Of a stretch of DNA of 45,612 bases, positions 4,054-45,612 are shown in pieces. The position numbers and the translations under genes are program-made. The notes under the pieces were generated by a model, which saw only the letters and a program-made list of their open reading frames with translations, did not search any database and had not been told where the DNA came from. This stretch comes from an uncultured virus (IMG/VR IMGVR_UViG_2061766007_000731) (taxonomy: Duplodnaviria > Heunggongvirae > Uroviricota > Caudoviricetes), in IMG/VR virus record IMGVR_UViG_2061766007_000731; one strand, given 5' to 3'. The stretch's first letter is position 1; every line of letters starts with the position of its first letter.

Positions 4054-7000
4054 ATCGTATCTTCTTTTTTAGTATAAATACGTGTTTTTTGTTCTTGCCG
4101 TCTTCCTGCAGATCATCCATTTATTTTAGTTAAATATCCGATAACTCTATCATAGTAATCAATGTGCTTTGAATCACATTTTGGACATACTGTCACAGGT
4201 TGTTTTCCAATTCATCCACAATCTTGGCATTCAGAATTTGGAATATTTCAAGTAAAGTATTGACATCCCACAGAAGCTGCATAATTAATAAGCTTTCTAT
4301 ATTGTTCTACACTCAAATGAGAGTCAAGATTAATATGGGCGGCAGAACCCGTGTTATCACATGTTTCCATGTGCACTGACTATATCTTAACTGAGATTAA
4401 ACTCAGCAATAACCATTTCAACTTACGTACCAATAGTAAGCTTACTCTCCCGATACGGAGATAGTCGATACAGGTTTATAATTATTGATATTAATTTCTT
4501 TATTTTTAAATATTCATTTCTTTTCATTTTTCAAGTATCTTGGAACATTTAAATATCCTCGATCTATTAAATTTCGAAATGCACATTTTGATTTAGATCT
4601 AGATCCAAATTTATTATAACACTCTGTTAAAGAGTGATTTACATAATATTTTCTAATTTTTAAAATTTCCCAATCTTTGTATAAAGCAATTGGATTACGC
4701 TCTCCTTTCAACCCAGTTTGCCTTTTGTGCCAATTTATATTCTCTTCTGTATAAACTTCACAATTTATATCTTTTCAAGTAACTCCTTCTCAAATTTTTT
4801 GAAACGCAGAGAATGATATTTTATTTTTATACATTTCTCAACATTGTTTACAATTAAGTTCACAATTGTCATAAATGCTCCTAATTTGAATTATTTCTTC
4901 GATAGATAATATTGCTCTCGGATTTGCATCAAGTTGATTTCTTTCACCTCCAGCTGTAAGATTATAACCCTTTTCTGGATTTCTGGAATCATAAAATTTA
5001 ATATAATATCGTTCTAATTCTCCAAGTTTTACAATATCATCTGTATTATCTATTTCCTCTATTTTAAAAGATTCAATACCATATTTTCGCATTGCGTTAT
5101 ATAAATGCTTTTTGGCACTTCTTTTACATTCGGCCTTATGAGAAGTTCATCGTTTGTTTAAGGAAAGCGTAGTAAGACCAATATAAATTTTATTATTTAT
5201 AAGATTGGTTATTTTATATATTATCATATCAATAATTATTTTCCCACGGTATTCCNNNNNNNNNNNNNNNNNNNNNNNNNNNACTGGTTAGTGGAAAAGT
5301 TATAACAGGCAGTTTAATCTACCATCTAAATAATCACCTATATATTCAGAACCATGTAATTTTAATTTATCTAGTACAGATATTTCTTTATCATTTGGTT
5401 TAAATATATAACTAGCATAAAGATTTATATCAGAAGGTATTCAGTATCCGTCCTGTTTATCTCAGTTGTAATTTTTTACTGCTAAAGATTCGGCAGGTAC
5501 TTGTTCTGTGTTATATGTAGTTTTTTCGGTTTTATGTAATAGATTTTGTTCTTTTACCGTACTAAATATAAACTGACAGAATTCTTTATATTCTTCATTA
5601 TCATTACATTGAATACCTAAAAATTCAGCAGCTTGATTTAGACCGTTTAAACCTATTGTTAAATATTGTTTATCGAGAGATATAAAATGCGATGAATATA
5701 CTGGAAGTAAACCAGCGTTATACATATCATAAAGTCCTTCGTTATATGCTGTATGATATTTGTAAACTCTTTCTAGAATATCAACTAAGTATTCATAAAG
5801 ATCGGGATATGATTCTCTTGCTCTTTGTTGAGTTCATTCAGGATTTAAATTTTTCATCATATTACTTCAATCTTGAATAATACGATTTAAATTTAATGTT
5901 ATAACTGATTTACTACCAGTCATAACGCCCATGTTACCATTAGTAAAATTAAACTCTTTTGTTTGAAGTTTATTCTTTAAACGACAACAAGACGATAACG
6001 AATCTACTGTATTTGAAATATATGTAAAGAAACTATGCCCTCTTGCATATTCTTCACATACAAATTCAAACATGTCTTTATCAACAAATTCTCCATCTTT
6101 ATATAATAGAGTAACTGATTCTACAGGAAAAGTTAGTATACATTTTAATCTTTCTGCATTAAACCATTGCATAAATTCTTTTTGTAATCAGCATAAAGAT
6201 TCTCATTTTCCTTGTGTGCCGTCTGGAAAATAAAATTCTCCAAACATCCCATCAAAGAACGGTTTATCAAAGTAAGAAAAATTAACAACATAAAATGTTC
6301 CGTATAGGTCGTTAATCTATACGCGTTTATAACTGCTATATGTTACCATATAGATCGGACTATATCATCGCTAATGCGTTCCCTACTTCCACTCACTTGA
6401 GTGTACTCCTTGCGGATAGTCTCTGAACCTGGCAAAGCCTCGGCTGCTGATTATCCATTTCTGGACTTCCCAGCAATTCAGGGAATTTTAAGTGCGCCTG
6501 TTATTTTTTTCTTATCTATGTTTATAACCATGTACTTTAAATAAGTGACATTCTTTACAGTATGTTATCAAATTATTTAAATCATTAAATTCTAGATCCT
6601 CCGTGGCAATTCTATATAATTCGTTTTGATTTTCAATAGGATCTAAATCAGAATGCTCTTGTAGTAATCTATCTAATATTTTAGAAAATGGTTTTATATG
6701 ATGAACTTGTAGTATATGTTTACTTCCGCATAATTGACAGCAATAATTGTCTCTTTCTAAAACCTTTGGAACTTGTTGAACATAAAATAATTCTCGTAAT
6801 CTATAATGTAATGGAGTTATTCCGCCTTTTCAATTTGGGTGTTTTTCTCCAACCATTTGACCTATTTTTGCCTCAGAATTATTACGAATCTGAATATTAA
6901 AATTTTTTAATATTCTGTCAATTACATCTGGTTCACAATTATATTTTTTAGCAATATCGGCTTTAGATAATTTCTGTGTTATATAAAGATCGATTACTAT

Positions 7001-9328: not shown

Positions 9329-11295
9329 TTAAATAAAAGATACTTCTGAGTCATAACCTGCTATCTCATAATATGCTACTCGTTTTAGTAACTCTGTAAA
9401 TTCATTAATGCCTCTATGAAGATCTTCATCGTTGATTTTAAAACATCTTGACCAGTAATTAGGAATTGTTTCTACGGCACATATGTTTGATTCAAAAGTC
9501 CATCCAGTTTTTGGAGATATGCCATATTCTTTATTTACATACAATTCTAATATAGACATATAAACACCCAATTGACGATAATATCTATAATGTTCAAACG
9601 AATTTTCCATAAATTGATTTATAGTTTTACCTGTAGTTTTCAAATCATTTAAAGAAATGGTCATAGTATCATCATTAATTGTCCAATTATCAATTTTTAA
9701 TTTAAATGGTATTATAGCACATTGTTTTTCTTTATATGTAACGATAAAATCAATAAATAGTGCATCTTCGTTAAAAAACTCATAATTTTCACCAAATGTG
9801 TTTATTGGTTGTAAAATATTAGATATAGTTTGATTAGATTTTAAAGATTGTATACAAGCATTAGCTATATCATAATCAGAGTCAGATAAAAATATTAATT
9901 TTTTTGTAGACTGTGATTGTAGCTTAGAAACTTTCGATGAGTATTCTTCCCATGTTTCTTTAATAATCTTTATTTTTGAATCAATATTTTTAGTAAAATA
10001 ATCAACTTTTAAAGCTGCGTTTTTAATAACTTCGTTAATGTCGTCATTAGATTTAAGAAGTGATTGGATATTATCCATAACCATACCGAGTTTTGCAGTT
10101 GGTTTATTTACTTTTGGAGCCAATTCAAACTCATCTCCTTGTAGAATACATTCGTGAATAGCGCTACCTAAAGATAAACTACTTGTTTGTAATTTAGGAG
10201 GATTTTGAAATAATTGTGGAGAACCCAATGTGTTATCTCTAAGACTCTTTATTCTTAGATTCAATAACTTCTTCTTTGTTANNNNNNNNNNNNNNNNNNN
10301 NNNNNNNNNNNAAAAAATCTTTATTTCATCTCATGTAGCATTATTTTTCATAATATTTGCTTTATGACTAATTACTCAAACATTTCCTTTTACATATCCT
10401 TTTGTATTATCTATACGATCTAATGAAGGAGTTCAATCGTAATAAGATTCTTTCCCATATTCAAATTTTCTATTGAATATTGGACATTTTTCAGGAATTT
10501 TTATATCAGAAACATCAATATTAAATTCTAAACCACGTTCTGGAGCATGTTTTTTTGCATTACTTCACATTTTATATTCAAAATTATTAAGTCTAGAATT
10601 ACGATTTATTTCATTTTTACGATCTCTGTAATTATTATCATAAATTCTACGTTGTTTATCAATGTCAATACCAGGATTATTTTGTACAAATTCCTTTTCA
10701 CATTCTTTACAATATCATTTTCTAAGAACTTTACCTGTTATTTTAAATTCATAATATGGCTTAGTTTTACCACATATTTTACAAGTAAATTCCATAGGAT
10801 ACTTTTTATTAGGATATTTTTGTACATATTGACATCTTTTACATGTAGATACTATACCATGCTTACATTCTGGATTTTTATAAAATTCATCTAGTGGTAA
10901 TTCCTTACCACAAATATTACATTTTTTTATCATATCAAAAAAATTTTAATTTTTTAAAATCTAAAATTTATTGATACAAATATAGTAAAAGATTTTTATA
11001 TTTCAAAATATATTTCCACTTTTCGTGGGTGTATTATATTCTTTTTTTTAAGTTTCAACACCTAGTCTCTACACCTTTTATAATCATTTAAATTNNNNNN
11101 NNNNNNNNNNNNNATTTAGTGGATTTAAAGAGAGCAATTCTATTTACCCTCAGTAGGATCAATCCATTTTAATCTACTATTACTTATAAACTTTTTGTAT
11201 TGATCTCCAAAATATGTGTCATCATCAATTGTTTCACGATGTATTGAATTATAATCTGGTATTATTTTAAAATCAGAAAACTTAATTTCTTCCAT
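9329..11295 (-). CDS. PD-(D/E)XK exonuclease, 2 exons (11295-11146, 10225-9329)
   Basis: ISNSRLKWIDPTEG^GSPQLF, LGSAIHE, KLKIDNW, NDLKTT, YYRQLGVY; both exons are multiples of 3; Trp encoded only by TGG. Confidence 0.85.
10312..10933 (-). CDS. intron-encoded Zn-finger/HNH (His-Me finger) endonuclease (TGA=Trp); 3' end in N gap
   Basis: CNICG..CKRC, CKICG, TPSLDRIDNTKGYVKGNV*VISHKANIMK. Confidence 0.82.
10977..11007 (-). promoter_or_regulatory. intron-internal Bacteroidota-type promoter
   Basis: TTTG-N19-TATATTTG about 45 nt upstream of the endonuclease ATG. Confidence 0.7.
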
Positions 11296-16725: not shown

Positions 16726-19004
16726 TAAAATTTATAAATTATTTCTTTTTTCGGTTCTACAACCTCATCTTTTGTTTCTTCTTTACTAAATTTTTCGTCT
16801 TTTCATGATTGATATTTAGAATAGTCTATATTATCTGGATTTGGTAATTCTTCAAATGTACCATTTGAACCCATAAAACCACAAACAATTGCTTTATGTG
16901 CACTACCAAATCTTGATTTTAGAATTAATAATCCTCTAATAGCACTACCTAATCCATCATCACCAATAACTTGATAACCTCTATATGTTTTAAGCTTATA
17001 ATCTAATGGATTATAAACAGCTATACATATATTACACAATTTTGTTATCATAAGAGCTCTTTATCTCTTATATCTACATATTACTATGTAGTTCAGACTA
17101 TATTTTCGTCCTATATGGCGTTCCCCCGTCTTCGTGGTAGATTTTATAGCCTCGTCTTTACGTTAGGCATCACTACTAGTCGTTTAGCTTTTATAATTAT
17201 TTCTAATTAATTTAGCACAGGATTGTCCATTTCAGGAGTTTCCCTGTTTAGCGGAGTTTTACAACGACCGTTATGTAATTTATACAAACAATCTGGATGT
17301 ATATAAGGTTCAATAATACTATTAAACTTTTCTACATATTTACTTGGTATATAAGTAACTCCAGATTTTAGNNNNNNNNNNNNNNNNNNNNNNNNNNNNN
17401 NNNNNNNNNNACTTGCAATTTGTTCTCAATCTTCTAAAGAATAACAATTTGTAGATATTAAATACCCACTTTTACTTTTAAAACCATCATCTTGAAACCA
17501 TATAGCTAAACCCAAATCATTAACCTTAGATAATATTTCGGGATTTNNNNNNNNNNNNNNNNNNNNNNNNNNNNNNNNNNNNNNNNNNNNNNNNNNNNNN
17601 NNNNNNNNNNNNNNNNNAAAGAATTTGTAAAACTTTTAATCGTAATACCATAATAAGTTTTATTTGTTCTTTTATCAAATTGACTAGAATAAATAGGTTT
17701 AAAACACAAATTTTTAAGTTTATTATATTTTCATAAACAATACTTTTCTTGTACTAACGAATGTTTAAATATAAACATAGCATTTTTACAATCATTTGGT
17801 ATATATAAACACGAATCTCCTAACAAACCTCCCAAAAATATTTGAAGTTGTTCGTCAGTAAATTGTAGTTTTTTTTGTGTATTACATTTAAGTCCTAATT
17901 TTTTTCGTATATCACAAATTCTTTTTTGTGGTATATTAAAAATTTCACTTAACTGTTTATCATTTAAACCTTTATTATACTCAATAATAAATTCATTTAC
18001 ATTAATTTGTCACTTTAAAGGTCTTTTTAAAGTTATTTTATATTCTTTACATCTTTTGTATAAAACTCCGTACGTAACATTAAGTTTTTTACAAATTTCT
18101 TCATAATTTTCACAATTNNNNNNNNNNNNNNNNNNNNNNNNNNNNNNNNNNNNNNNNNNNNNNNNNNNNNNNNNNNNNNNNNNNNNNNNNNNNNNNNNNN
18201 AAAAATTACTTGTGTTTATAGATCGTTTCCAGGATTACCAGATTCCTTAACTTCATCAAGAGTAGGTTCTGACATATCCATTTTTAATCTATCTGATGTG
18301 CCAGCTGTTCTATTTTCTTGAAGTAAGAAATCTACAGATATTCCACAAACTTCTCTAAACCTCACTAGATAACTTGAAGCTAGATCAATTTCTTCTTTTT
18401 TAGTACGACCTTTTGTTGGTTGAAAAAGACCACCATGATCAATAATAACATTAATTATTAACGATGGATCTTTTGGTTTATATATTTTTCGTTTTCCATC
18501 AGACGAATCAACAAAACTCCCATGCTCTTCGAGAAATTCCATAATTTTAGCATATAGAAAATCTGCATTCATTCGTTGATCATAAATAATAATCTTTTTA
18601 CTTACTTCGTCTAATCAATTTTTGGCCTCTAATACTTTTAAATATATAACATCTGGTAAAGGTTCTCTAATAGAAAATATATCCATAAATGAAACATCTA
18701 AATGATATGTTTCTCACAAATATAAATTTAAAAGTTTTGCTAATAAAACAGTACCTCTCATTTCCATACTGAAATAAAGATGTACAAAGTTTTTATCAGG
18801 ATAATCTTTTAATGTTCTATATAAAGTATAAGTAGTTAAACTAGTCTTTCCAGAACCACTCTTTCCAAAAATTAATCTATACATACTTTTTTGAAATCCA
18901 CCAGTATATCAATCTATTTTTGGTAATCCTGTTTTTAAACCTATGTTTTCTCCGGATAATCCTTTTTCAATTTCTTTATATAAGTCGTTAACAACAGTAT
19001 TCAT
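16725..19004 (-). CDS. dnaB: DnaB-like replicative helicase, 2 exons (19004-18222, 17036-16725; TGA=Trp)
   Basis: KTGLPKID*, Walker A GKSGSGKTS, FSMEM, IIDH, QENR, KESGNPGND^CNICI, LKSRFG. Confidence 0.9.
17037..18221 (-). mobile_element. group I intron in dnaB with the endonuclease ORF in the P1 loop
   Basis: Guide GGTCGTT (about 17263-17269) is complementary to AACGAT/C at the 5' junction; core AAACAGGGAA, AATCCTGTGCT, AACGACTAG, AAATATAGTCT; terminal G at 17037. Confidence 0.87.
17207..18117 (-). CDS. intron-encoded LAGLIDADG endonuclease (start in N gap; TGA=Trp)
   Basis: IFLGGLLGDS and LGLAIWFQDDG motifs, ISTNCYS, PYIHPDCLYKL. Confidence 0.83.
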
Positions 19005-19618: not shown

Positions 19619-20824
19619 TTAAAATCTAAATTTATAATCTGGAATAAATTCTTGTTTTCTAGTTTCAATTTCTTTTCCAGCAAGTATTTGATCTAATTGA
19701 TCTTCGTTAATTACAGTTACATCTGATGTATTACTATTTGCAAATCATTTTATTTCTTGTGTACCTTTAAGAACTAAAATAAACATTTCTGCAATCTTTC
19801 CTGGTTCGGCACGAATAACTCGTCCTAATTTTTGAATAGATTTAATCTTAGAACTATTCACATTCATAACAATNNNNNNNNNNACTCCTGTATCAAGAGC
19901 TTTTGATGATGCTATTGACCCATGCTCTAAAGAATTAAAATTATCCATTATTTCTTTATTCTGTTTTTTACTTTGTTTTGAATGTAAAATATAATCACAT
20001 CCTATTTTTTCAGCTTCTTTAATGGTACTAGAAAAAGTTATACATTTCTTATTTTTTCTAGCATTAAGAATTTTTTTACAAATTTCTATTTTTTTAGGAT
20101 GTGATGCTATAAATTGTTTTCGACCTTGAACGGCTTTCATTCATGAAGCGCTAATACCAACACATTCTTTTGGAGTTACCCCCATTTGCTTAGCATAAGA
20201 ATTTCTAAATTTTCAATCAGAAAGACATTTTTGACCATTTGTCCAGTTATAACCAAAAAATGCAAAATAACTGTTAAATCTTCTATCAAGTTCTTTATAT
20301 TCGGTTAAATCTACATCTAGTAATACTAAATATTGTTTAACTGGAGCAACTCAACCGTTATTTAATGCTTCTTGCATAGTGATTGTATCACAAACTGGTG
20401 CATATTTTTTAATAATTGTTTCCTTACCATCAAGACGTTCAATTGTCGCAGTAAGACATAAAATCATATCATATTTAACACATGTAAAAATACGTTTAAA
20501 TGTTTCACTAGGCGCTATATGACATTCGTCTATTATTAACAAATCACAAAAACTATTATATGTAATTGTAGTATTAATTATTTCAACAATACAATTTCTT
20601 CCCAATCCATAAGGATTAATATAATCTTCAATCCATTGTTTTTTTAATACTTCTGTAGGAACAACAATTTTAATTACTGCATCAGAATTATGTTTTAATA
20701 ATAATATCATAGCTCTTAAAGCTACTCTAGACTTACCAAATCCAGTAGCAGCTACAACACAAGCTTTTCCACCATTAGCCAATCAATTTTTAACACATAG
20801 TTTCTGTCTTTCCGTTCTGTCCAT
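19619..20824 (-). CDS. superfamily 2 (DExH) helicase (TGA=Trp)
   Basis: ATGFGKS, IIDECH, LTAT.ERLDG, IQKLGRVIR; 402 codons in one frame. Confidence 0.9.
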
Positions 20825-23800
20825 TAGAATAAAGTTTGATTTTGACTCTCTTCAATAGCATAAATTATTTTATAAATTTCATTTGAATATCATAAATAAT
20901 TTATATGCGCATCTTTTGGGGCTATGTTTTGAAATTCGTTAAAAATAGTAACATTGGACGTAGCACATAAGTCTGCATAATCAGATCGTATTCCAGTTTC
21001 TTTATCAACAACACATCTACGTATTTTATATCCATTTGTTGACATATAATACCTATTAATGTGTGTTAATAACTGGCCGTTATACTCAATACTAAATTCC
21101 TTTTTAACTTTTTGATAAGTTAAGAACTTTTTAATATCGTTACAATTATATAATGTTTCTTTGACTGGAATCTTATTTACAAAATATTCTTTTAAACATT
21201 CTGCAATAATTTGTGGAGACATGCCTTTACCTAATTGAACAGTATCGATAAACAAACCTTTTGTTTTAATTAGTTTTGGATCATGTGTTTCTGAATATCC
21301 TTTATAAACGCCGATATAATCATTTACAGCATATTGATAAAACGCTTCAAAATATTCGTGTTCTAATTCAAATCGAGTTATATGCTCTCAATTATGACAT
21401 ATATTCATAATATCATCAATTTTATCTTTTGGCGCCATATATAATACACCATCTGTATTTAATTGACCAATTTTACAACCACTTTTAATTAATTGTTCAG
21501 TTAACATTAAAAGCATTAATTGACAATTTAATCTTAATCGTAAAACTGTTTTAGGATCATAACATCATGAATACTCATTTTGTAGCATGCCTGATATACC
21601 ATTCAATGCTAATTTATATGTTTGGTTAATAACATTATTGCCCTCTCTTTTAGCTTTAATTCTATCAGCTCGTATTCTTTTATAAGTATCAAGAAATTCA
21701 GGCCCTAAATGTTGAGGATATAAACCAAAATTAATTATCGCACTTGGATACATTGCTTAACCAATAAACTTTCGTTTATTGCTGGACTATCTCATCTTTT
21801 AAAAATTTTTTTCATTTATAACCGTATATAGTTGGCTTTTCACCATTACACGCAGCATAAATATTATGTCTTTTTCAATTTGGATTTTCTTTTAATATAT
21901 CATAGACAGAGTCTCAAACTTTAATTAGTTCCTCAGTCTCTTTATTATATTGATAAAAACGATATTCGGTTCGAGAAACACTGACTTTTTTCTTCATATC
22001 TTCTTTCAATTGAGGATTTTCATCTCAGTGTTTATTTCTTATCTCGCACGCTTTTTTTGGAGCTTCGGGATTAATAACTCTTTCTCCAGACTTAAATTCA
22101 GTTTTAAGACGTTTTGACATAATTAATTTTTGTTCATCTGTTCATTTGTTTCCAAAATTTGGATTTTTCTCACCAGTAAATATTTCAGATTTTAACTTTC
22201 TTGTTTCTTCTGATACAATTACACCGGTTGAAGAATCTCTTCTTAAATTATATCCAAAATCTTTATCAGTAGCATTTAGTTCAACTATTCAAAAATCTTC
22301 ACGTTCTCTTAACAATTCTTCATTTAATTCTAATTCTTCAATAACAAAATATTCAAAGTTATAGGCTCCGTATTTNNNNNNNNNNNNNNNNNNNNNNNNN
22401 NNNNNNNNNNNNNNNNNNNCTATTTTCGTTTTTATCTTTATTATTTAGAAGATATTTATGACTAATTATTCTTTGATAAATATCTTTTGACTTACCAACA
22501 TATACTTTTTTATTAATTTTATTAACTATNNNNNNNNNNNNNNNNNNNNNNNNNNNNNNNNNNNNNNNNNNNNNNNNNNNNNNNNNNNNNNNNNNNNNNN
22601 ATATTTTATTTTAAAATTATATGCAAATATACAAAAATTAATGGTTGTATCCAAATATATTTTTAATTTTTAAAAGTTCCCTTTTTAGTCTCTGAGCCTT
22701 CTTCCATACGGAAGNNNNNNNNNNNNNNNNNNNNNNNTTTATATTTTTACCATCGTTTTGATTAGAAACGCCCTATAATATATTTCTATTTATAGTTGGT
22801 AATAAAAGCTCTAAAGACGTTCCCGCAGTTTAAGGAATTTAACGTGCGCCAATGTTACCTAACGCACAATCGCTATCTATAATTACTCATTTATCATCGG
22901 ATTTATAAATTGCAGGCTTATTTTTAGTATGAATACCACCTAAAGAATATGTAATTTCAATATCGTTAAGATAAACTGTAATTTTTCAACGATCTTTTTG
23001 ATCTTTATTACGTTCTTCTTCTAAGTTTAAATGTGTACTAAGAATTTGTTTATGTAATTTTTGTAGTTCTGGAGTTTCAAAATGAATAAAATCAAATATA
23101 ACATCTTTTAAATCTAACTGATTACATGGACTACGAAGATTTTTAATTTCGTCTCAATGTTTTCCAGTATCTTTTAAATAATTATTCTTAATAATTTCAA
23201 CTCCAAGATTAACTCCATCCATATTAAGTACATTAACACCAAATGTTTTATCTACATCTTCTCGTAGCTTAATATCTTTTTCTAGACGAAACATTAACTC
23301 TTTAGTTGATAAAATGTCATTAATATTATAACTAATTACATTATCAAATTCTGATTCTGGTAAATAACTATTAAAATCTCCTTCATATTCACGAACATTA
23401 GAATATTCCATAGTTACTTGTAACTCTTTTAAACCAACCCTTAACTTAGAAGCAAACATCATTGTTAATAAATCTAAATGACTAAATAAATTAGCATATT
23501 TATATTTACTTCATGAAGCTACTTGATCTNNNNNNNNNNNNNNNNNNNNNNNNNNNNNNNNNNNNNNNNNNNTAAACGTTTATTTATTTCTCAAACGGGA
23601 AGTTTTACAAGTTCATCTATATTCAAAATAATATAAGAAATAATAGGAGAATCGTAATGAATAGTATTAAATCCGACAAATATAATATTTTTATTAAGAT
23701 ATAAATTTGCAATATCTAAAATATCATTCTTACGTTGTGATATTTCAAAAACCTTAATATTATTAGAATTAACATTTACTNNNNNNNNNNNNNNNNNNNN

Positions 23801-29369: not shown

Positions 29370-29826
29370 AATTAATTTAAGTTTATATTTAATATTTTTG
29401 CCACATTATAAATTATANNNNNNNNNNNNNNNNNNNNNNNNNNNNNNNNNNNNNNNNNNNNNNNNNNNNNNNNNNNNNNNNNNNNNNNNNNNNNNTAAAA
29501 TTTGTTAAGCCAAATTCATCTAAATCATACTCTTTATTATTAGATGTTTTTAATAATCCAATAAGTCGTCGTTCGTTTAAATTTTGTTGAGATTTTAACT
29601 TATTTTTATTATCATCGACTTCTANNNNNNNNNNNNNNNNNNNNNNNNNNNNNNNNNNNNNNNNNNNNNNNNNNNNNNNNNATACGTGCAATGATTCTTT
29701 TTTAATAATATAACACATTTATCAAAATCTGTAATATTATCATATCCATCTAATATACCATATTGATTTTGTATTCTATCTAAATGTGGTTTATAATTCA
29801 TCTATCTGTATATTCATTTTACATCG

Positions 29827-29900
29827 CCCCCACGTTTCGATTCGAACAAAAATCTAATTGTTTTGAAGACAATTGCATTAGCCAATTATGCTACATGGGG
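29827..29900 (-). tRNA. opal suppressor tRNA, anticodon UCA (probably Trp-accepting)
   Basis: Acceptor CCCCAUG/CGUGGGG with G73; anticodon stem AUUGU/ACAAU and loop CU-UCA-AA; T loop UUCGAAU; short variable loop; CCA not encoded. Confidence 0.9.
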
Positions 29901-32671: not shown

Positions 32672-33526
32672 TTACATCCAACACTGTAAATTACAGTGAT
32701 TATCTATTTGATAATTTATTTTATTATTTATTTCTTCCCAACTAATTGGTGTAAAATTATTAAAATCTACTCCAACATCATACTGTGTAGGAAGATAGCA
32801 TTTGACAAATTCCGAATCAAATCCAGTATTGTTATTTCTAATATGTGTGTGTCCAGATAAAGCAAAATGTAATTGATCTTTTGGATATTTATCAGAATTC
32901 CAATGAGCAAAAGTTAAAAATGGAAAATGATTTAAATACACTGTACGACCATCTACGTTAATACGCATTTGATAGGTTACATAATCAAATAATAAATCTG
33001 TTCCTGTAGTTCTATTTTTATCATCCTTGTTGTTTAGTGTAAGTCGTTAATTTACACCCATATAGCTCATACTTCATTTAATATGAGAACTGACTATATC
33101 TTCACCCTTGACGTTACTCATTAGGGGCAGGGCATTTGGAGTCACTTGACTCTACTTCCATTTCAGGAATAGTCGATGAACCTTCTGTATTATCTACAGC
33201 TTGGCTGCTGATTACCATCTCAGGCTTTCCAGCAATTAACCCTGTTTCACTTAATGATTTCTCATTAAGAGCACAAATTATTTATGATTACCTACAATTA
33301 GTATAATATGACCATTAAGTTGATCTCTAATTTCTTTCCATTTTGGAAATCCTCCAAAAACAAAATCACCAAGATGAAACACAGTATCATCTGGTCCAAT
33401 AACAGAATTCCAATTATTAATTAAAGTTTGATCATGTTCTTCTATTGTATTAAACGGACGATTACAGAATTCTAAAATTTTAGAATGTTTAAAGTGGGTA
33501 TCGGACGTAAACCACAATCCATTACC
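32672..33526 (-). CDS. calcineurin-like metallophosphoesterase, 2 exons (>33526-33284, 33025-32672)
   Basis: FTSDTHF, HLGDF, GNH^D, LNHFP, GHTH, DVGVD. Confidence 0.88.
33026..33283 (-). mobile_element. ORF-less group I intron (258 nt) in the GNHD motif
   Basis: AATTGCTGGAA, AATCAGCAGCCAAG, TTCATCGACTA, AAGATATAGTC; exon ends in U, intron ends in G, frame is restored. Confidence 0.92.
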
Positions 33527-33904
33527 NNNNNNNNNNNNNNNNNNNNNNNNNNNNNNNNNNNNNNNNNNNNNNNNNNNNNNNNNNNNNNNNNNNNNNNNNN
33601 NNNNNNNNNNNNNNNNNNNNNNNNNNNNNNNNNNNNNNNNNNNNNNNNNNNNNNNNTCATAATCATCGTAGTCAGATAGACAACGACCATCCTTATATAC
33701 GTAATAATGTCTATTACATTCCATAATATTCCTTAATAGTTATAGAACCTGGATAATAATATCTACGAATACCATTAGGTTTTATTTCAACATAGCCCAT
33801 AAATTTACCATCAACTAAATATAAGTTAACTTCAATTTCTTTATTATCTGATTTGCGATATGCTTTCATAAATGATGTTTTAGTTAATAAATTAAGTTAA
33901 TATT

Positions 33905-35054: not shown

Positions 35055-35725
35055 AATTAATCATAATAATCATACATTTTGTATAAATCTTCATAATATT
35101 CATCAGATCTATAATTACAACAATCGTCTTCGTGATAATCCTCAAATCGTGGGTGATGTGTAGATTGTGATTTAGTTACTTGAGTTTTACTACCTGTTGT
35201 TTGTTTAGGTTTAGATCTATGAAAAATATACTTATCATTTTCTAATAAGTTAACTACCTNNNNNNNNNNNNNNNNNNNNNNNNNNNNNNNNNNNNNNNNN
35301 NNNNNNNNNNNNNNNNNNNNNNNNNNNNNNNNNNNNNNNNNNNNNNNNNNNNNNNNNNNNNNNNNNNNNNNNNNNNNNNNNNNNNNNNNNNNNNNNNNNN
35401 NNNNNNNNNNNNNNNNNNNNNNNNNNNNNNNNNNNNNNNNNNNNNNNNNNNNNNNNNNNNNNNNNNNNNNNNNNNNNNNNNNNNNNNNNNNNNNNNNNNN
35501 NNNNNNNNNNNNNNNNNNNNNNNNNNNNNNNNNNNNNNNNNNNNNNNNNNNNNNNNNNNNNNNNNNNNNNNNNNNNNNNNNNNNNNNNNNNNNNNNNNNN
35601 NNNNNNNNNNNNNNNNNNNNNNNNNNNNNNNNNNNNNNNNNNNNNNNNNNNNNNNNNNNNNNNNNNNNNNNNNNNNNNNNNNNNNNNNNNNNNNNNNNNN
35701 NNNNNNNNNNNNNNNNNNNNNNNNN

Positions 35726-36386
35726 TCAATTTTCTTTCCATTTTTTTCTATAACAAAATCAAGAAAATATTTTTTAGTAGAAAAATCTTCTCTGACATAA
35801 ACTATATTATGTTCATCTAGAACTTTCATTCAGAATTGTTCAGAATAAGATGTTATATTCCTAGATTGTCAACCAGAAAAACTTCCTGCTTGTTTTCTTT
35901 CTTCAACTTTATTTCTTAATTTTTGCTTTACTTCTGGATCAGAATTAGAACATTTGTTAGAACAATACTTAGCATTTGAATTTTTGGATAAGAATTCTTT
36001 ACCACAAATTTTACAAACACACTTAACTTTCAATTTCCTACTATTAGTTCTTGGAATAGATAAATATTCTTCTAAAGATAATCCTAATCTATTAGCATTT
36101 TTCTTTAATAAAGTTTCAGATATTTTCTTTTTCTGTTCTTTTGTAATAGATTCTCTTTGTTTATTATTATAACTAGCAGCACAAGACTGACAACAGAACT
36201 TTCTTTTAAATCTATCCTTCCCTTTAATCTCTTCGCCACAGTTTAGACAGTAAACTTTTCTAGTTTTATAATCTTGTATATGTTTTTCTAAATCAAAATT
36301 AAAATTGTCTAAACATCATTGACGTACTTTTTCTTGCATTTTACCATTAGTATAACTTTTATTAAATACTAATTTAATAGCTTCTG
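35726..36386 (-). CDS. free-standing Zn-finger + Vsr/DUF559-like endonuclease (both ends in N gaps; TGA=Trp)
   Basis: CLNCG..FCCQSC, CKICG..YCSNKC, SG*QSRNITSYSEQF*MKVL...YFLDFVI; in-frame TGA at 35869 and 35830. Confidence 0.65.
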
Positions 36387-39440: not shown

Positions 39441-41800
39441 TTAGTAAAGTAAATGATATTTTTTAATTAATTGTGTAGCTAATTCTACATCACCATTATT
39501 AATAGCGGTATTTATATATGAAGGATCTGGCAATAAAAAAGAGTTATTATAACTACTAATAGCTTTCATTACTTGCGTATATACAAATTCTATTAATTCT
39601 GGACTTTCCATCATTGCACTAGATAGACTACGATATTCAAACATCTTGGTTCTCTCCAAGATAAGACTTTACCTTCATCTTCAGCATTACCTGTTAAGAG
39701 TCTCCCGTCAAGTCGTTACACCTTCCTCTATTAAGAAGCTTGGCTCGGTATTCCTTCTGCTGGTTCACCGAATTTGAGAGATCTTCGAATATTATTTCTA
39801 ATATTCTGGGCCTTATCATATTTTCTTTTTAGAAAATAATGAGCAGAATCGTATAAATAGTCAAAAANNNNNNNNNNNNNNNNNNNNNNNNNNNNNNNNN
39901 NNNNNNNNNNNNNNNNNNNNNNNNNNNNNNNNNNNNNNNNNNNNNNNNNNNNNNNNNNNNNNNNNNNNNNNNNNNNNNNNNNNNNNNNNNNNNNNNNNNN
40001 NNNNNNNNNNNNNNNNNNNNNNNNNNNNNNNNNNNNNNNNNNNNNNNNNNNNNNNNNNNNNNNNNNNNNNNNNNNNNNNNNNNNNNNNNNNNNNNNNNNN
40101 NNNNNNNNNNNNNNNNNNNNNNNNNNNNNNNNNNNNNNNNNNNNNNNNNNNNNNNNNNNNNNNNNNNNNNNNNNNNNNNNNNNNNNNNNNNNNNNNNNNN
40201 NNNNNNNNNNNNNNNNNNNNNNNNNNNNNNNNNNNNNNNNNNNNNNNNNNNNNNNNNNNNNNNNNNNNNNNNNNNNNNNNNNNNNNNNNNNNNNNNNNNN
40301 NNNNNNNNNNNNNNNNNNNNNNATTTTGATTAATATATCCACAATGAATATGAACAAATTTGTTATCTTATAGGCTTTTTATCCTATAATTCTTACAGTC
40401 TAGCTATTCTGTAAGTTCAGCATATATTTTCATCCTATATATTATATAGGAGTAATTCACTCTTGGGGATATTTTATTCTCTTTCGAGGTTCAATCCCTA
40501 TGCGTTANNNNNNNNNNNNNNNNNNNNNNNNNNNNNNNNNNNNNNNNNNNNNNNNNGATATGCTTTAATTTTATTATATTTTCTAATCATATAAATTTCA
40601 GCATTTTCGTATAAGAAATTATATAATTTTTGTATTTTTTGAGGTTTATCTTTATTATTAGCCGATCATCTTAAATGATAATATTTACAAGTTTTTCCTT
40701 GTTTTTCATATAATTTATATGTTAAACCAGTATATTTGTTAATTAATTCACCAACTTGTATTATTCAGGTTTTATTTGGACTAACAATAGAAGGAGTAAA
40801 TATTCCATCGTGTTGTTCAAAGGAACCATCACCATCTATATATCCTCTAATTAACGCGCCTCAATATTTTTCTGATATTTTGTCAAACGGAAAATTAAAA
40901 TTAGTAAAAGTTTTATTTGGACCTAAATTATAGTTAGCAATATCATTTACCATATCTTTGGAAGTTCATCGTAATCGCACTTGAGTTTTACGTTTTATAT
41001 ATCCGTTTTGATAATTATATTTACTAACTTTTAAATCTCCTAGTTCTTTTGCTAATTCTTCTAATATATACCCGTCTTCTTCTTGTATATTAAAAGAAAA
41101 TCTTCCGTTACATCGTTGTTTTTTATTTATAGTTACACAACCATCTGCAATAAAAAACCCTAAAAAATAGGCTTTTTTATCACTATTTATTTCAGAAAAA
41201 TAATTTACATTCATAATTGTAATTTTAAAAATTAAAAATCTCTTGCTGGTGTAAATATACACATTAATCTTTAAAATTACAAATAATTTCTTATAGTTTT
41301 TTTTGCTTCTCGTCTACCGTTTTTGAATTATTCTTAGTATTAGTTACCTAATACAAGGGCCTCACATTGACCCCGCACCACGACCATTTGAACTTTTTGC
41401 CTCTGGTTTAGGATTTGCTTTCATTGTGTACACATTGTAATCAGGATCACAACNNNNNNNNNNNNNNNNNNNNNNNNNNNNNNNNNATCTTCATCAACTA
41501 TTTCATAAGCGGAACATTTAATATCGTAATTTGAATTAATTCGTTTGACAAAACAACGAATATAATTTTTCATATATTCAATATTATGTATCCATTCTTC
41601 AACAGTCCTACATGGAGGAATATTAAATTCAGCTAAAATATTATCAGTTTCANNNNNNNNNNNNNNNNNNNNNNNNNNNNNNNNNNNNNNNNNNNNNNNN
41701 NNNNNNNNNNNNNNNNNNCAGAAGATACAATTTTATTAGTAGATGTATCAATAATAAATAATTCAGGATCTGCTCCTAGAGTAATTGATTGTACGTACAT
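39441..41800 (-). CDS. phiEco32-like COOH-NH2 ligase type 2, 3 exons (41800-41370, 40354-gap, 39641-39441)
   Basis: LGADPE, DNILAEFNIPP, CDPDYN, RGAGF^HIHCG, EYRSLS. Confidence 0.85.
39642..39866 (-). mobile_element. group I intron (ligase intron 2) with the C-terminus of a probable LAGLIDADG ORF; 5' part in N gap
   Basis: AAATTCGGTGAA, AATACCGAGCCAAG, GTAACGACTTG, AAGGTAAAGTCT; terminal G at 39642; upstream frame YLYDSAHYFLKRKY. Confidence 0.82.
40557..41214 (-). CDS. intron-encoded LAGLIDADG endonuclease (TGA=Trp)
   Basis: KAYFLGFFIADG and ALIRGYIDGDGS motifs; YNFLYENA..MIRKY. Confidence 0.87.
41252..41283 (-). promoter_or_regulatory. intron-internal Bacteroidota-type promoter (1 mismatch)
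   Basis: TTTG-N20-TATATTTA about 40 nt upstream of the ATG at 41214. Confidence 0.55.
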
Positions 41801-43571: not shown

Positions 43572-44612
43572 TTAGTCCTCGTTTTCATTTTCAACTACTT
43601 CAGCTACAGGAATGTTAGCAGGAGTTGGGGCAAATATGTTACCAAAAGGATTTTGTCCGCCATTAAGCATGGAGAACATTAACATATCCTTAATATCAAA
43701 ATCACCGTCTCCAGCCATAAGAGCAAAAAGCATCGGATTTTGAGTAAGAGTTCCGCCATTCTGCGTCATCATCATTAAAGGAAGAAGAGACGAATTTTCA
43801 TCATCCTTAGAAAGAGCAAGAAGCATCAAAGGATTCAACTGACCGTCAACAAGACCAGTATAAGAAATTACTACACGAACTGTAGCTTGACCAAGAAGGA
43901 AGTCCTTAATAGGATAAATGTTAGATCCATTGCCAGTATAACCAACAACGCAAATCTTACCATCTTTAATGCTCTTTACTTTAGCATAGGACTTTGAACG
44001 ACAAATAACATCACCAGGTTTAAGTTGTTCAAATGGCTTAGCAATGGTGTAAGCGGGTACAGGAAGAACTGCTTCTACAGGATAAGAAACAAGTTTAAAA
44101 TTATTATCGATGGCGACATAACCTTCTGTGGTTTCGACACAAATATTGCCATCCATGGCAATACGAACGTCAGTTGCTTCCGTAGGATAGAACTGTGCCT
44201 TAAGACGTTCACCAAAATTCTTAAAGGAATTCTTCATCTCAGGTTTTGAATTTGTTGTGTTAGTTTTTGAAAGTAAAGGCTTAGCGTATTGACACCAAGT
44301 CTCAAATTTAATACGATTCTTGACAGACGTAATATTAGCTTTCTTCAGGTTATAATTACGAGCAAGATTGTCAATATAAGCGGCGTCCTCACCAGTAAGC
44401 TGATCTACAGGACGATCGAAGGTTTTGAGAACATACAGACTATTACCTTTATCAGTACGAAGATTGTCACCAACCTGTACATTTTCAAGATAACTATTAA
44501 GGCCAACCTCAGCGATATAAAACTTAGGCTTGCCCTTTGCAAAAGCAATAACTTGCTCTAAATTTTTAGGCTCAAAACCAATGTTAGAAGTGTAAATAAT
44601 AATACGATTCAT
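43572..44612 (-). CDS. hypothetical protein with Met/Leu-rich C-terminal repeats
   Basis: Intact 346-aa ORF; NPLMLLAL, LLPLMMM, NPMLFALM, DMLMFSML. Confidence 0.8.
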   Translation of the reverse strand: MNRIIIYTSNIGFEPKNLEQVIAFAKGKPKFYIAEVGLNSYLENVQVGDNLRTDKGNSLYVLKTFDRPVDQLTGEDAAYIDNLARNYNLKKANITSVKNRIKFETWCQYAKPLLSKTNTTNSKPEMKNSFKNFGERLKAQFYPTEATDVRIAMDGNICVETTEGYVAIDNNFKLVSYPVEAVLPVPAYTIAKPFEQLKPGDVICRSKSYAKVKSIKDGKICVVGYTGNGSNIYPIKDFLLGQATVRVVISYTGLVDGQLNPLMLLALSKDDENSSLLPLMMMTQNGGTLTQNPMLFALMAGDGDFDIKDMLMFSMLNGGQNPFGNIFAPTPANIPVAEVVENENED

Positions 44613-44693
44613 ATAAGTCTATTGTATTTTTAAATAAAGAATCTATACTGTGGACATAGATCTTTGTTGTTAATAATTCCGTTAATATTTTAG

Positions 44694-45195
44694 TTGTGGC
44701 GGCNNNNNNNNNNNNNNNNNNNNNNNNNNNNNNNNNNNNNNNNNNNNNNNNNTCAACTCCTTCATTCTCTAAATGAGAAACATTTGCCTTTTCAGCTTGT
44801 TAGTTGTTGTTTGTGGTCTGGACTATACCTTCTCCGTATTGAAATCTTGCAAGTTCGTGACTTATCCCTATTACTTGGGGGCTCTCAAAAGCTACATTCT
44901 TTGTCCTTATTATTTCAACTTAGGCGCTCTCCGTCTAGTCTCTACACACTGTCTATAGCTCCGACTTTTATTTTCTGAACTCTTTCGAGGGCCATCCTAG
45001 CTAATAACATTGGCTCGGTATTAACATATTGGCGATAAGCGAGCTTTTCAAGTCCTGCATTACTGCATCCTGCGCTCNNNNNNNNNNNNNNNNNNGAATT
45101 TGGAGAGTTCTACATTAATGATTTCTCATTAAGCATTCAGATTATGATTAAGTTCCGTACTAAAATCCCATGTCTTGCCGTTAGACGACGCCACA
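44694..45195 (-). tRNA. intron-split tRNA with a Gln-like body (anticodon unresolved)
   Basis: 5' half UGUGGCG-UC-GUCU-AACGGCA-AGAC-A-UGGGA-UUUU at 45195-45162; matching 3' acceptor CGCCACA-A at 44701-44694; the rest of the 3' half is in N gap 44704-44752. Confidence 0.8.
44730..45161 (-). mobile_element. ORF-less group I intron in the tRNA anticodon loop (ends approximate)
   Basis: P3 CUCUCC (45107-45102)/GGAGAG (44932-44927), AATACCGAGCCAA (45022-45010), GTGTAGAGACTAG (44947-44935), AAGGTATAGTCC (44831-44820). Confidence 0.88.
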
Positions 45196-45202
45196 ATCAT
45201 TT

Positions 45203-45412
45203 TTAATAAGTTTCGTAAATTAATTTAAGTAATTTTTCAAATTCAATATCACGTTCGTTTTTAGTAGAAAATTTTAATTTCTTTATAACACCTACGCAAA
45301 AGTAAATAAGAATGTTATAATTAATATCATTCGAATATTGAATATCTTGCTTTTCAATATAAGAAATATTATTTACAATAATACTGCAATTTTTATAATG
45401 ATATGCTCTCAT
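45203..45412 (-). CDS. hypothetical protein
   Basis: 69-aa ORF ending just before the split tRNA. Confidence 0.55.
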   Translation of the reverse strand: MRAYHYKNCSIIVNNISYIEKQDIQYSNDINYNILIYFCVGVIKKLKFSTKNERDIEFEKLLKLIYETY

Positions 45413-45612
45413 AAATAAAATTAATACTTTTATTTCATCTGTCGGAGGAAAAAGTATTAAAAACCCGAAAGTCCGCGAGTGTTGGGTTGATCTGTTATAA
45501 CGTTTACCAACTGTCTTATGTTTAGTATCTCATTCAACTTAATGACTACGGATACCCGTTTTGATACGACATAAATGGAATTTGCCACTCTCTCGCCCTT
45601 TCTTATTTCTTT

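Follow-up and report, generated by a model that had tools for sequence, protein, structure and literature searches.

Group I introns are found in the anticodon loops of tRNA genes in cyanobacteria, plastids and some proteobacteria, and phages carry them in protein-coding genes such as td, nrdB and sunY of T4. The locus described here lies at positions 44694–45195, on the minus strand, of a 45,612-nucleotide (nt) stretch of DNA from an uncultured virus of the Caudoviricetes (IMG/VR record IMGVR_UViG_2061766007_000731), which as a whole is called the window. It is very probably a tRNA-Gln(UUG) gene that is split between U35 and G36 by a group I intron of the IC3 type lacking an open reading frame (ORF), in a large, intron-rich phage of the cattle gut that recodes TGA. 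The split tRNA itself is confirmed. A preliminary description, made from the sequence, had seen here a phage tRNA whose anticodon loop is interrupted by a group I intron without an ORF and with enlarged outer domains, and this has stood: a covariance model (R1, see below) matches the insert, and no sense-strand ORF of at least 30 amino acids is present in the intron under genetic code tables 11 and 4.

Williams (2020) distinguished 21 classes of bacterial tRNA introns in a survey of bacterial and archaeal genomes only. The accessible parts of Hausner et al. (2014; PMC3984707) place all phage introns described to that date in protein-coding genes, and those of the account of the Jug jumbo phages of the gut (PMC12880540), which carry ~18 group I introns per genome, never mention tRNA. 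The word ‘intron’ is absent from the main text of Al-Shayeb 2020 (PMC7162821), as is ‘phage’ from Selles Vidal 2025 (PMC11835236). The literature searched, which did not cover the class table and supplements of Williams (2020), held no paper on a group I intron in a phage tRNA gene.

The introns of tRNA-Leu(UAA) genes, as seen in the IMG/VR loci L002–L007, share with the window intron the anticodon-loop site, an ORF-less compact core and the J2/3, P4′, J6/7–P7 and J8/7–P7′ blocks, and a model built from the Leu copies finds the window intron. In both, a U.G pair marks the 5′ splice site, and the guide (the intron strand that pairs with the exon end in P1) stands directly before P2. The window intron differs in its host, a tRNA-Gln in a phage genome, in its site (35/36 rather than 34/35), in its guide (CUGAA rather than UUGAG) and in its length (~460 against ~175–250 nt); it is longer because P5, P6, P8 and P9 carry inserts. 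The Azoarcus tRNA-Ile(CAU) intron and those of other bacterial tRNA classes resemble it in their IC3 type, their place in the anticodon loop and a P1 whose exon part has three pairs, and the family to which the window intron belongs also has copies at CAU|AA, with the guide UUGUG. The introns of phage protein-coding genes are likewise phage-borne and of the self-splicing type, are often many per genome and have free-standing homing endonuclease genes alongside, but the window intron has a tRNA gene as its host.

The tRNA exons and the 5′ splice site

All positions below refer to the window, and the gene is read on its minus strand. Starting at the 5′ end, exon 1 (tRNA positions 1–35; 45195–45162) passes through the acceptor strand UGUGGCG (45195–45189), UC, and a D arm with a 4-pair stem (GUCU, loop AACGGCA, AGAC; 45186–45172) to A26. 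It then forms the 5′ strand of the anticodon stem, UGGGA (45170–45166), and continues as loop nucleotides U32–U35, the sequence UUUU-AGU beginning at 45165. The visible end of exon 2 (44694–44703) comprises the last two bases of the T stem (GC), the acceptor strand CGCCACA (44701–44695) and the discriminator A73 (44694). The acceptor strands form seven of seven Watson–Crick pairs. The two tRNA halves, the core elements and a segment GGAACU (45156–45151) that the preliminary description had picked out are all found on the minus strand where it had placed them.

The window contains 41 runs of N, of which one (49 positions, 44704–44752) covers most of exon 2 and another (18 positions, 45078–45095) lies near P4. 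The lengths of these runs are not true. The 49 N correspond to 68 letters in a contig from the run X1, a possible source of the window sequence, and in the X1 and X3 contigs the 18-N run is bordered by 14 letters that the window lacks. The length of the intron, about 460 nt when 27 hidden exon bases are taken by analogy, is consequently an estimate.

The tRNA is identified by its relatives. The 28-mer of exon 1 from the D stem to U35 has a single exact match in metagenome_contigs (28/28 nt), in an intron-less gene (L010) that ARAGORN calls Gln(ttg), and none in genome_contigs; the exact 34-mer of exon 1 has no match in viral_contigs. An 18-mer search gave two further intron-less tRNA-Gln genes in viral contigs (L018 and L019), also called Gln(ttg). 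All three have the anticodon stem UGGGA/UCCCA closing the loop UUUUGGU. U1–A72 and A73 are common to them and to the window gene, and the acceptor stems covary among all four. The tRNA-Gln body proposed earlier is thus upheld.

An intron-containing counterpart is present in two viral contigs of 363 and 108 kb that are identical here (L021 and L050). It reads ...GGGAUUUU, then 556 nt ending GUGGUAUG, then GGUUCCCA..., so that UUUU is followed by an intron ending in G and then by GGUUCCCA, and ARAGORN in intron mode (-i) calls the tRNA Gln(ttg). The tRNA family, the site 35/36, the intron core and a guide fitting UUU|GG are common to this gene and the window gene. The two differ in the P5, P6, P8 and P9 inserts, and in that the guide is UCGAA and the intron begins with GA in L021 and L050, while the window has CUGAA and AG. 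L019 is an empty allele of the L021 locus; the exons differ by 1 nt, the 556 nt are precisely absent, and in the flanks 225 and 256 of 351 columns are identical. The search for alleles with and without the intron that had been suggested for this gene has therefore yielded both (L010, L018 and L019; L021 and L050). G36, G37 and U38 are present in all four relatives (L010, L018, L019 and L021), each of which carries the exon 2 start GGUUCC that had been expected; in the window U34 and U35 are visible and G36 is masked by N.

In the minimum free energy fold of the window sequence, U33, U34 and U35|A G (45164–45160) pair with the guide CUGAA (45140–45136) to form the P1 hairpin (45136–45164). U35 (45162) and G45138 form a U.G pair that sets the 5′ splice site at the boundary of 45162 and 45161. 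This pair is flanked by U33–A and U34–A on the exon side and by A–U and G–C on the intron side. The preliminary description had seen no canonical U–G pair in P1; one is thus present. Three nucleotides (UGC) separate the guide from P2, in the same register as in the introns L002 (Leu), L012 (Ser) and L021 (Gln), and comparison with L021 reveals a double swap in P1, where AG at the intron start with CU in the guide (window) is exchanged for GA with UC. GGAACU had been offered as the strand forming P10 with exon 2. This pairing is rejected in favour of one adjacent to the guide, since canonical P10 partners adjoin the wobble G; GGAACU is moreover altered in the X4 relative (a single contig, depth 4.2).

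The guide CUGAA fits UUU|GG, and hence the tRNA should be Gln(UUG) rather than a suppressor with the anticodon UUA. After splicing the anticodon would be UUG, with the masked G36 and G37 pairing with CU of the guide. Of two splice points proposed earlier, that after U35, giving Gln(UUG), is retained, since the wobble G of the guide pairs with U35 and the relatives read UUUUGGU. In the proposed mechanism the precursor would fold with U33–U35 paired with CUGAA, placing the U35.G pair at the splice site, and free guanosine would attack after U35. The guide would then hold G36–G37 as P10 while U35 attacked after the last G of the intron, giving a tRNA with the anticodon loop UUUUGGU. As far as can be judged from the sequence, the fold and mechanism are those of the bacterial tRNA (IC3) introns. 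Because exon 2, the terminal G and the closure of P9 lie in an N run, we infer the splicing of the tRNA-Gln intron, which would be of the self-splicing type. No RNA run is among those listed as holding this stretch.

The loop of P1 appears to hold the remains of an older splice site. The model R1 aligns 45158–45135 to the exon end and P1 of the tRNA-Leu introns, and within this the segment ACGGAACUU-AA (45148–45158), which includes GGAACU, is a putative leftover of a former 5′ exon and P1 strand. ACUUAA (45153–45148) forms four of six pairs with the present guide CUGAAU and six of six with UUGAGU. The two mismatches fall at the two letters in which the guide differs from the UUGAGU of the Leu and Ser introns, a coincidence whose chance we estimate at ~0.04. 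The segment may therefore be a fossil of an earlier insertion site, and it is the evidence for a possible, if doubtful, move of the intron into tRNA-Gln from a site of the tRNA-Leu(UAA) type (CUU|AA). If that did happen, this phage intron lineage would pass from one tRNA anticodon loop to another through changes in two to five letters of its guide, a natural case of ribozyme retargeting, possibly by reverse splicing, with outer domains swapped on the way.

The intron core

Proceeding from P1, the strand forms P2 (UUAAUGA-GAAA-UCAUUAA, 45115–45132), which differs from that of L012 (UUAAAGA/UCUUUAA) by one compensatory pair; in an alignment of 11 sequences (A2) all seven pairs of P2 change on both sides. 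J2/3 (UGUAGAA), the 5′ strand of P3 (CUCUCC), J3/4 (AAA) and the start of P4 (UUC) follow (45096–45114) and are identical in L012. In the fold, the remainder of P4, J4/5 and an enlarged P5 domain, partly masked by N, occupy 45024–45095. The P4 5′ strand, which is partly masked, is completed by the X1 and X3 contigs, where GGUGAA continues P4 and is followed by J4/5 as in the relatives. P5 is short in other copies of the family, as seen at a joint (45027–45096) in the cattle runs. Hairpins resembling T arms, GGCGG-UUAAACU-CCGCC and GGCGGUUCGAAUCCGCC, occur in P5 inserts, in L012 (at about 960–990) and at a loose end of X5 that joins at window position 45028.

J5/4, the visible 3′ strand of P4 (ACCGAG) and the start of P6 (CC) make up UAAUACCGAGCC (45012–45023), and an 18-mer of this part of the core, AATACCGAGCCAATGTTA, recurs in 38 IMG/VR loci. 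P6 folds as an enlarged domain (44948–45011) in which UGUU..UAGCU pairs with AGCUA..GACA below the tip CUC-GAAA-GAG; its insert is nearly the same in L032, the intron of a tRNA-Arg(UCU)-type gene. The following block (44927–44947) contains J6/7, the 5′ strand of P7 (GACUA, 44940–44936) and the 3′ strand of P3 (GGAGAG, 44932–44927). It reads GUGUAGAGACUAGAC-GGAGAG and is identical in L012 and L013–L016; a 23-mer spanning J6/7–P3′ has no match in viral_contigs.

P8 (44832–44926), placed by the fold and by alignment to the model, comprises CGCC/GGAG, in which three of four pairs form, and a 7-pair extension (UUGAAAU...AUUUCAA) capped by a tip of 66 nt. In other family copies this tip is 16 nt long, as judged from a joint at 44832–44920 in the cattle runs. 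J8/7 and the 3′ strand of P7 (UAGUC) form GAAGGUAUAGUCC, which is followed by the 5′ strand of P9, ACCAC (together 44813–44832). A 21-mer around P7′ occurs exactly in eight IMG/VR loci, all of them split tRNA-Leu(UAA) genes, in seven of which Rfam finds Intron_gpI at 51–54 bits. The P9 extension and then the N run complete the element (44704–44812). By homology with L021, where the counterpart is GUGGUAUG|GGUUCCCA, this run would hide the closure of P9, the terminal G and tRNA positions 36–63. All six pairs form in P3, and all five in P7 (GACUA/UAGUC).

The covariance model R1 was built from five distinct tRNA-Leu(UAA) introns and has 47 pairs, with P7 excluded as a pseudoknot and the window sequence left out. 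Rfam Intron_gpI recognizes four of these five introns, missing L006. With filters off, R1 scores 36.2 bits (E = 1.6e-8) on 44927–45153, and the whole model scores 45.5 bits (E = 6.8e-11) on 44778–45158, both on the minus strand. In A2, 96% of cells pair and 35 of the 47 pairs change on both sides, which none of 500 shuffles reaches; A2 was fitted to R1, which biases the pairing statistics upward, and no slid register comes near these values.

The outer parts of the intron have other affinities. P6–P8 are closer to the introns of Arg(UCU)-type genes (L032, 78% over 236 nt; L023, 75% over 243 nt) than to those of the Gln counterpart, and P9 aligns with that of the Leu intron L057.

Related introns in viral tRNA genes

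Many of the 38 IMG/VR loci that contain the 18-mer lie on contigs of 100–390 kb. ARAGORN -i places 32 of them inside split tRNA genes, which fall into at least eight site classes. By our own reading of the junctions the intron is inserted at 34/35 in Ser(UGA), Arg(UCU) and Leu(UAG), at 35/36 in Gln(UUG), at 34/35 and 36/37 in Lys(UUU), at 33/34 and 34/35 in Leu(UAA) and at 36/37 in the CAU class. The labels Tyr, Arg-acg, Leu-aag and Stop that ARAGORN gives to several family loci are mis-splits. L011 and L017 were rejected as chance matches in coding DNA.

The guide changes with the site. It is UUGAG or UCGAG at CUU|AA, CUU|AG or CUU|GA, AGGAG at CUU|CU, AAGAG at CUU|UU, UGGGU at ACU|UA, UUGUG at CAU|AA and UCGAA at UUU|GG. 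Splice sites were taken from the ARAGORN -i calls with a shift fixed by U(–1) and the terminal G, the best-pairing shift being chosen, which leans towards pairing. Of the 32 split-tRNA loci, 27 could be examined; five without anchors were dropped, and ARAGORN seems to have mis-split L055, L056 and L057. On this footing P1 has its three exon pairs in 26 of 27 loci, and P10 its two pairs with exon 2 in 25 of 27. Judged by these sequences, the window intron is a member of a lineage present in many phage tRNA genes, its guide altered to fit each site.

The same core block is found in capsid-like and polymerase-like genes (L013–L015), and the outer domains of the family do not track the host tRNA. 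The sequences of P7 and J8/7 vary among the loci. On the large contigs the tRNA-Ser(UGA) and tRNA-Gln(UUG) genes can be neighbours: in L020/L021 and in L050/L051 they stand ~1.1 kb apart, each with a family intron (722 and 556 nt). An Rfam tRNA match of 30.8 bits lies within the intron of L039 (688–791).

Eight tRNA-Leu(UAA) genes on contigs of 5–37 kb that IMG/VR lists as viral (L002–L009) are split after CUU by an intron of ~175 nt, with the junction G/AAAA at its end. Default ARAGORN called none of these eight. Phage tRNA counts obtained with default ARAGORN, tRNAscan or Rfam settings would be too low, and so would the numbers used in arguments on codon usage and host takeover. In large phages, at no fewer than 32 IMG/VR loci found with one 18-mer, tRNA genes are split by what appears to be a single intron lineage with its guide refitted per site. 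The family may be regarded as a natural series of one ribozyme at eight or more sites, and is suited to the study of target change and outer-domain exchange in group I introns.

Alternative explanations and genomic setting

Several observations weigh against the reading of the locus as a split tRNA-Gln gene with a working intron. The N run covers tRNA positions 36–63 together with the terminal G and the closure of P9, and the third anticodon base and the 3′ splice site are deduced from homology alone. P1 has only five pairs, its 19-nt loop holds the competing helix of the leftover, and P8 contains a G.A mismatch. An intron-less allele of this exact locus was not seen, and among the contig joints listed none links the two exons directly. 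Elsewhere in the window ARAGORN detects five tRNAs, but it reports none at the split gene, even in intron mode, as is expected when exon 2 is masked; it had been foreseen that tRNA finders would miss the gene, as ARAGORN in both modes and Rfam do. Rfam Intron_gpI (RF00028) gives no match at its gathering threshold (50 bits), nor at E up to 10 on 44400–45612, owing to the N runs and long inserts. Thus of the Infernal search suggested earlier the Rfam model was negative and the tRNA-Leu-intron model R1 positive. Among eight relatives with large inserts Rfam Intron_gpI scores four at 31–42.5 bits and gives no match at E = 0.01 for the other four. The mismatch in P8, the short P1 with its competitor helix and the half of the core's 3′ end that is unseen would suit a dead gene, in which the intron is inactive and the split tRNA-Gln a pseudogene kept only by recent descent. 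We consider this unlikely, given that no visible block of the core is damaged or differs from its counterpart in the relatives. A more distant contig from X4 keeps exon 1 with one change (giving U.G), U35 and the guide, while its leftover segment has drifted; and the match of guide to site in 25–26 of 27 family loci argues for selection for splicing. That two unrelated tRNA-like fragments flank an intron-like stretch by chance or misassembly is extremely improbable. The middle of the gene is indeed masked, and repeated intron cores can give rise to chimeras in metagenome assembly, with a depth >100 over the core here. Independent X1 and X3 contigs nevertheless bridge exon 1 into the intron (that of X3, from another study, is 643 nt long with two other letters and the same 14-letter insertion), and an X1 contig spans the intron, the hidden part and the downstream gene. 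L021 has the same architecture, and a 7-nt complement would arise in the right range by chance in ~2–4% of cases, by our estimate.

A second question is what the gene and its intron are for. If the intron began after U38, the exon-side sequence UUUUAGU would provide a 7-nt loop with the anticodon UUA, reading UAA or UAG, as the preliminary description had entertained. This is very improbable indeed: U38 has no U.G pair, the wobble G of the guide pairs with U35 at the register fixed throughout the family, and all four tRNA-Gln relatives have the loop UUUUGGU. The coding of the phage points the same way, since it recodes TGA and not TAA or TAG. Reading TGA as sense raises the number of minus-strand ORFs of at least 200 amino acids from 17 to 33, whereas TAG has little effect and TAA acts alike on both strands. 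ORFs of table 4 tile 1–26 kb of the minus strand, where the primase, helicase and polymerase matches run across one to seven TGA codons, while the genes in 26–45 kb are mostly without TGA. TGA is probably read as Trp, and the tRNA(UCA) at 29826–29900, labelled tRNA-SeC(tca) by ARAGORN, is likely the TGA-reading tRNA. The window gene is an ordinary tRNA-Gln and not a new suppressor. It had also been suggested that the intron serves a splicing-controlled supply of the tRNA. In such a scheme it would time the supply of tRNA-Gln, or hide the gene or its anticodon loop from host defences directed at tRNA or DNA; the preference of the lineage for anticodon loops of phage tRNAs would suit this, as would the delay of genes that the phage already achieves through TGA recoding. 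Nothing found here points to regulation, though, and we regard such a device as decidedly unlikely. Intron-bearing and intron-less alleles of one tRNA-Gln locus coexist (L021/L019), the same core lies also within protein-coding genes, and the outer domains are a patchwork common to several hosts, all of which is typical of a selfish element. The intron in tRNA-Gln is thus probably not a switch; most likely it is a selfish passenger rather than a control device, tolerated because splicing removes it.

All genes of the window lie on the minus strand. Pfam and PHROGs recognize a GroEL fragment, an amidoligase, a glutamine amidotransferase, an IMPDH-like enzyme, phosphoesterases and an exonuclease. 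The sequencing runs holding neighbouring DNA are bovine gut metagenomes, among which X1, X3, X4 and X5 were compared; the X1 contigs carry exon 1 and the intron. GenBank phages gave no match for the region by blastn, nor for 25000–45612 by megablast. Four genes resemble homing endonucleases, of the GIY-YIG (4442–5227), HNH/endonuclease VII (9329–10933, N-terminal part), HNH (35254–36339) and PHROG ‘endonuclease’ (40498–41262) kinds. Polymerase and nrdD genes are split in the window: the C-terminal part of a DNA polymerase is at 20824–21753 (profile 359–656 of 663), and a piece of nrdD at 5300–6247 is matched by a table-4 ORF. The read-through of TGA, the introns and the endonuclease genes together mark a large TGA-recoding phage that is rich in introns and endonucleases.

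Further introns are present on the same strand. A group I intron at 33072–33293 is found by both Rfam (74.3 bits) and R1 (43.5 bits). It directly follows an ORF (33278–33724) whose match to a phosphoesterase family (phrog_547) is confined to the N-terminal part (positions 30–109 of 245), and the locus looks like a split phosphoesterase gene. Another group I intron, at 39629–39815, is not called by Rfam at its gathering threshold, although R1 scores it at 59.4 bits. It splits a protein gene, with an ORF upstream (39731–40357) and the frame continuing to ~39440. A stretch at 17098–17293, with a weak R1 score (11.1 bits, E = 0.09) and blocks like those of group I P4–P6 and P9, is possibly a fourth, more distant intron.

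A scan for promoters and terminators near the split gene gave nothing above shuffles. The neighbouring protein (43572–44612) belongs to no Pfam or PHROG family. It has one IMG/VR relative (51% identity), encoded on a 176-kb viral contig, L001, where the corresponding place lacks a split tRNA. Rfam places a tmRNA gene (99 bits) at 1426–1941 of this contig, within which 179 nt form an insert that does not align, and just upstream, inside a tRNA array, is a match to ‘permuted tmRNA’ of 58.6 bits.

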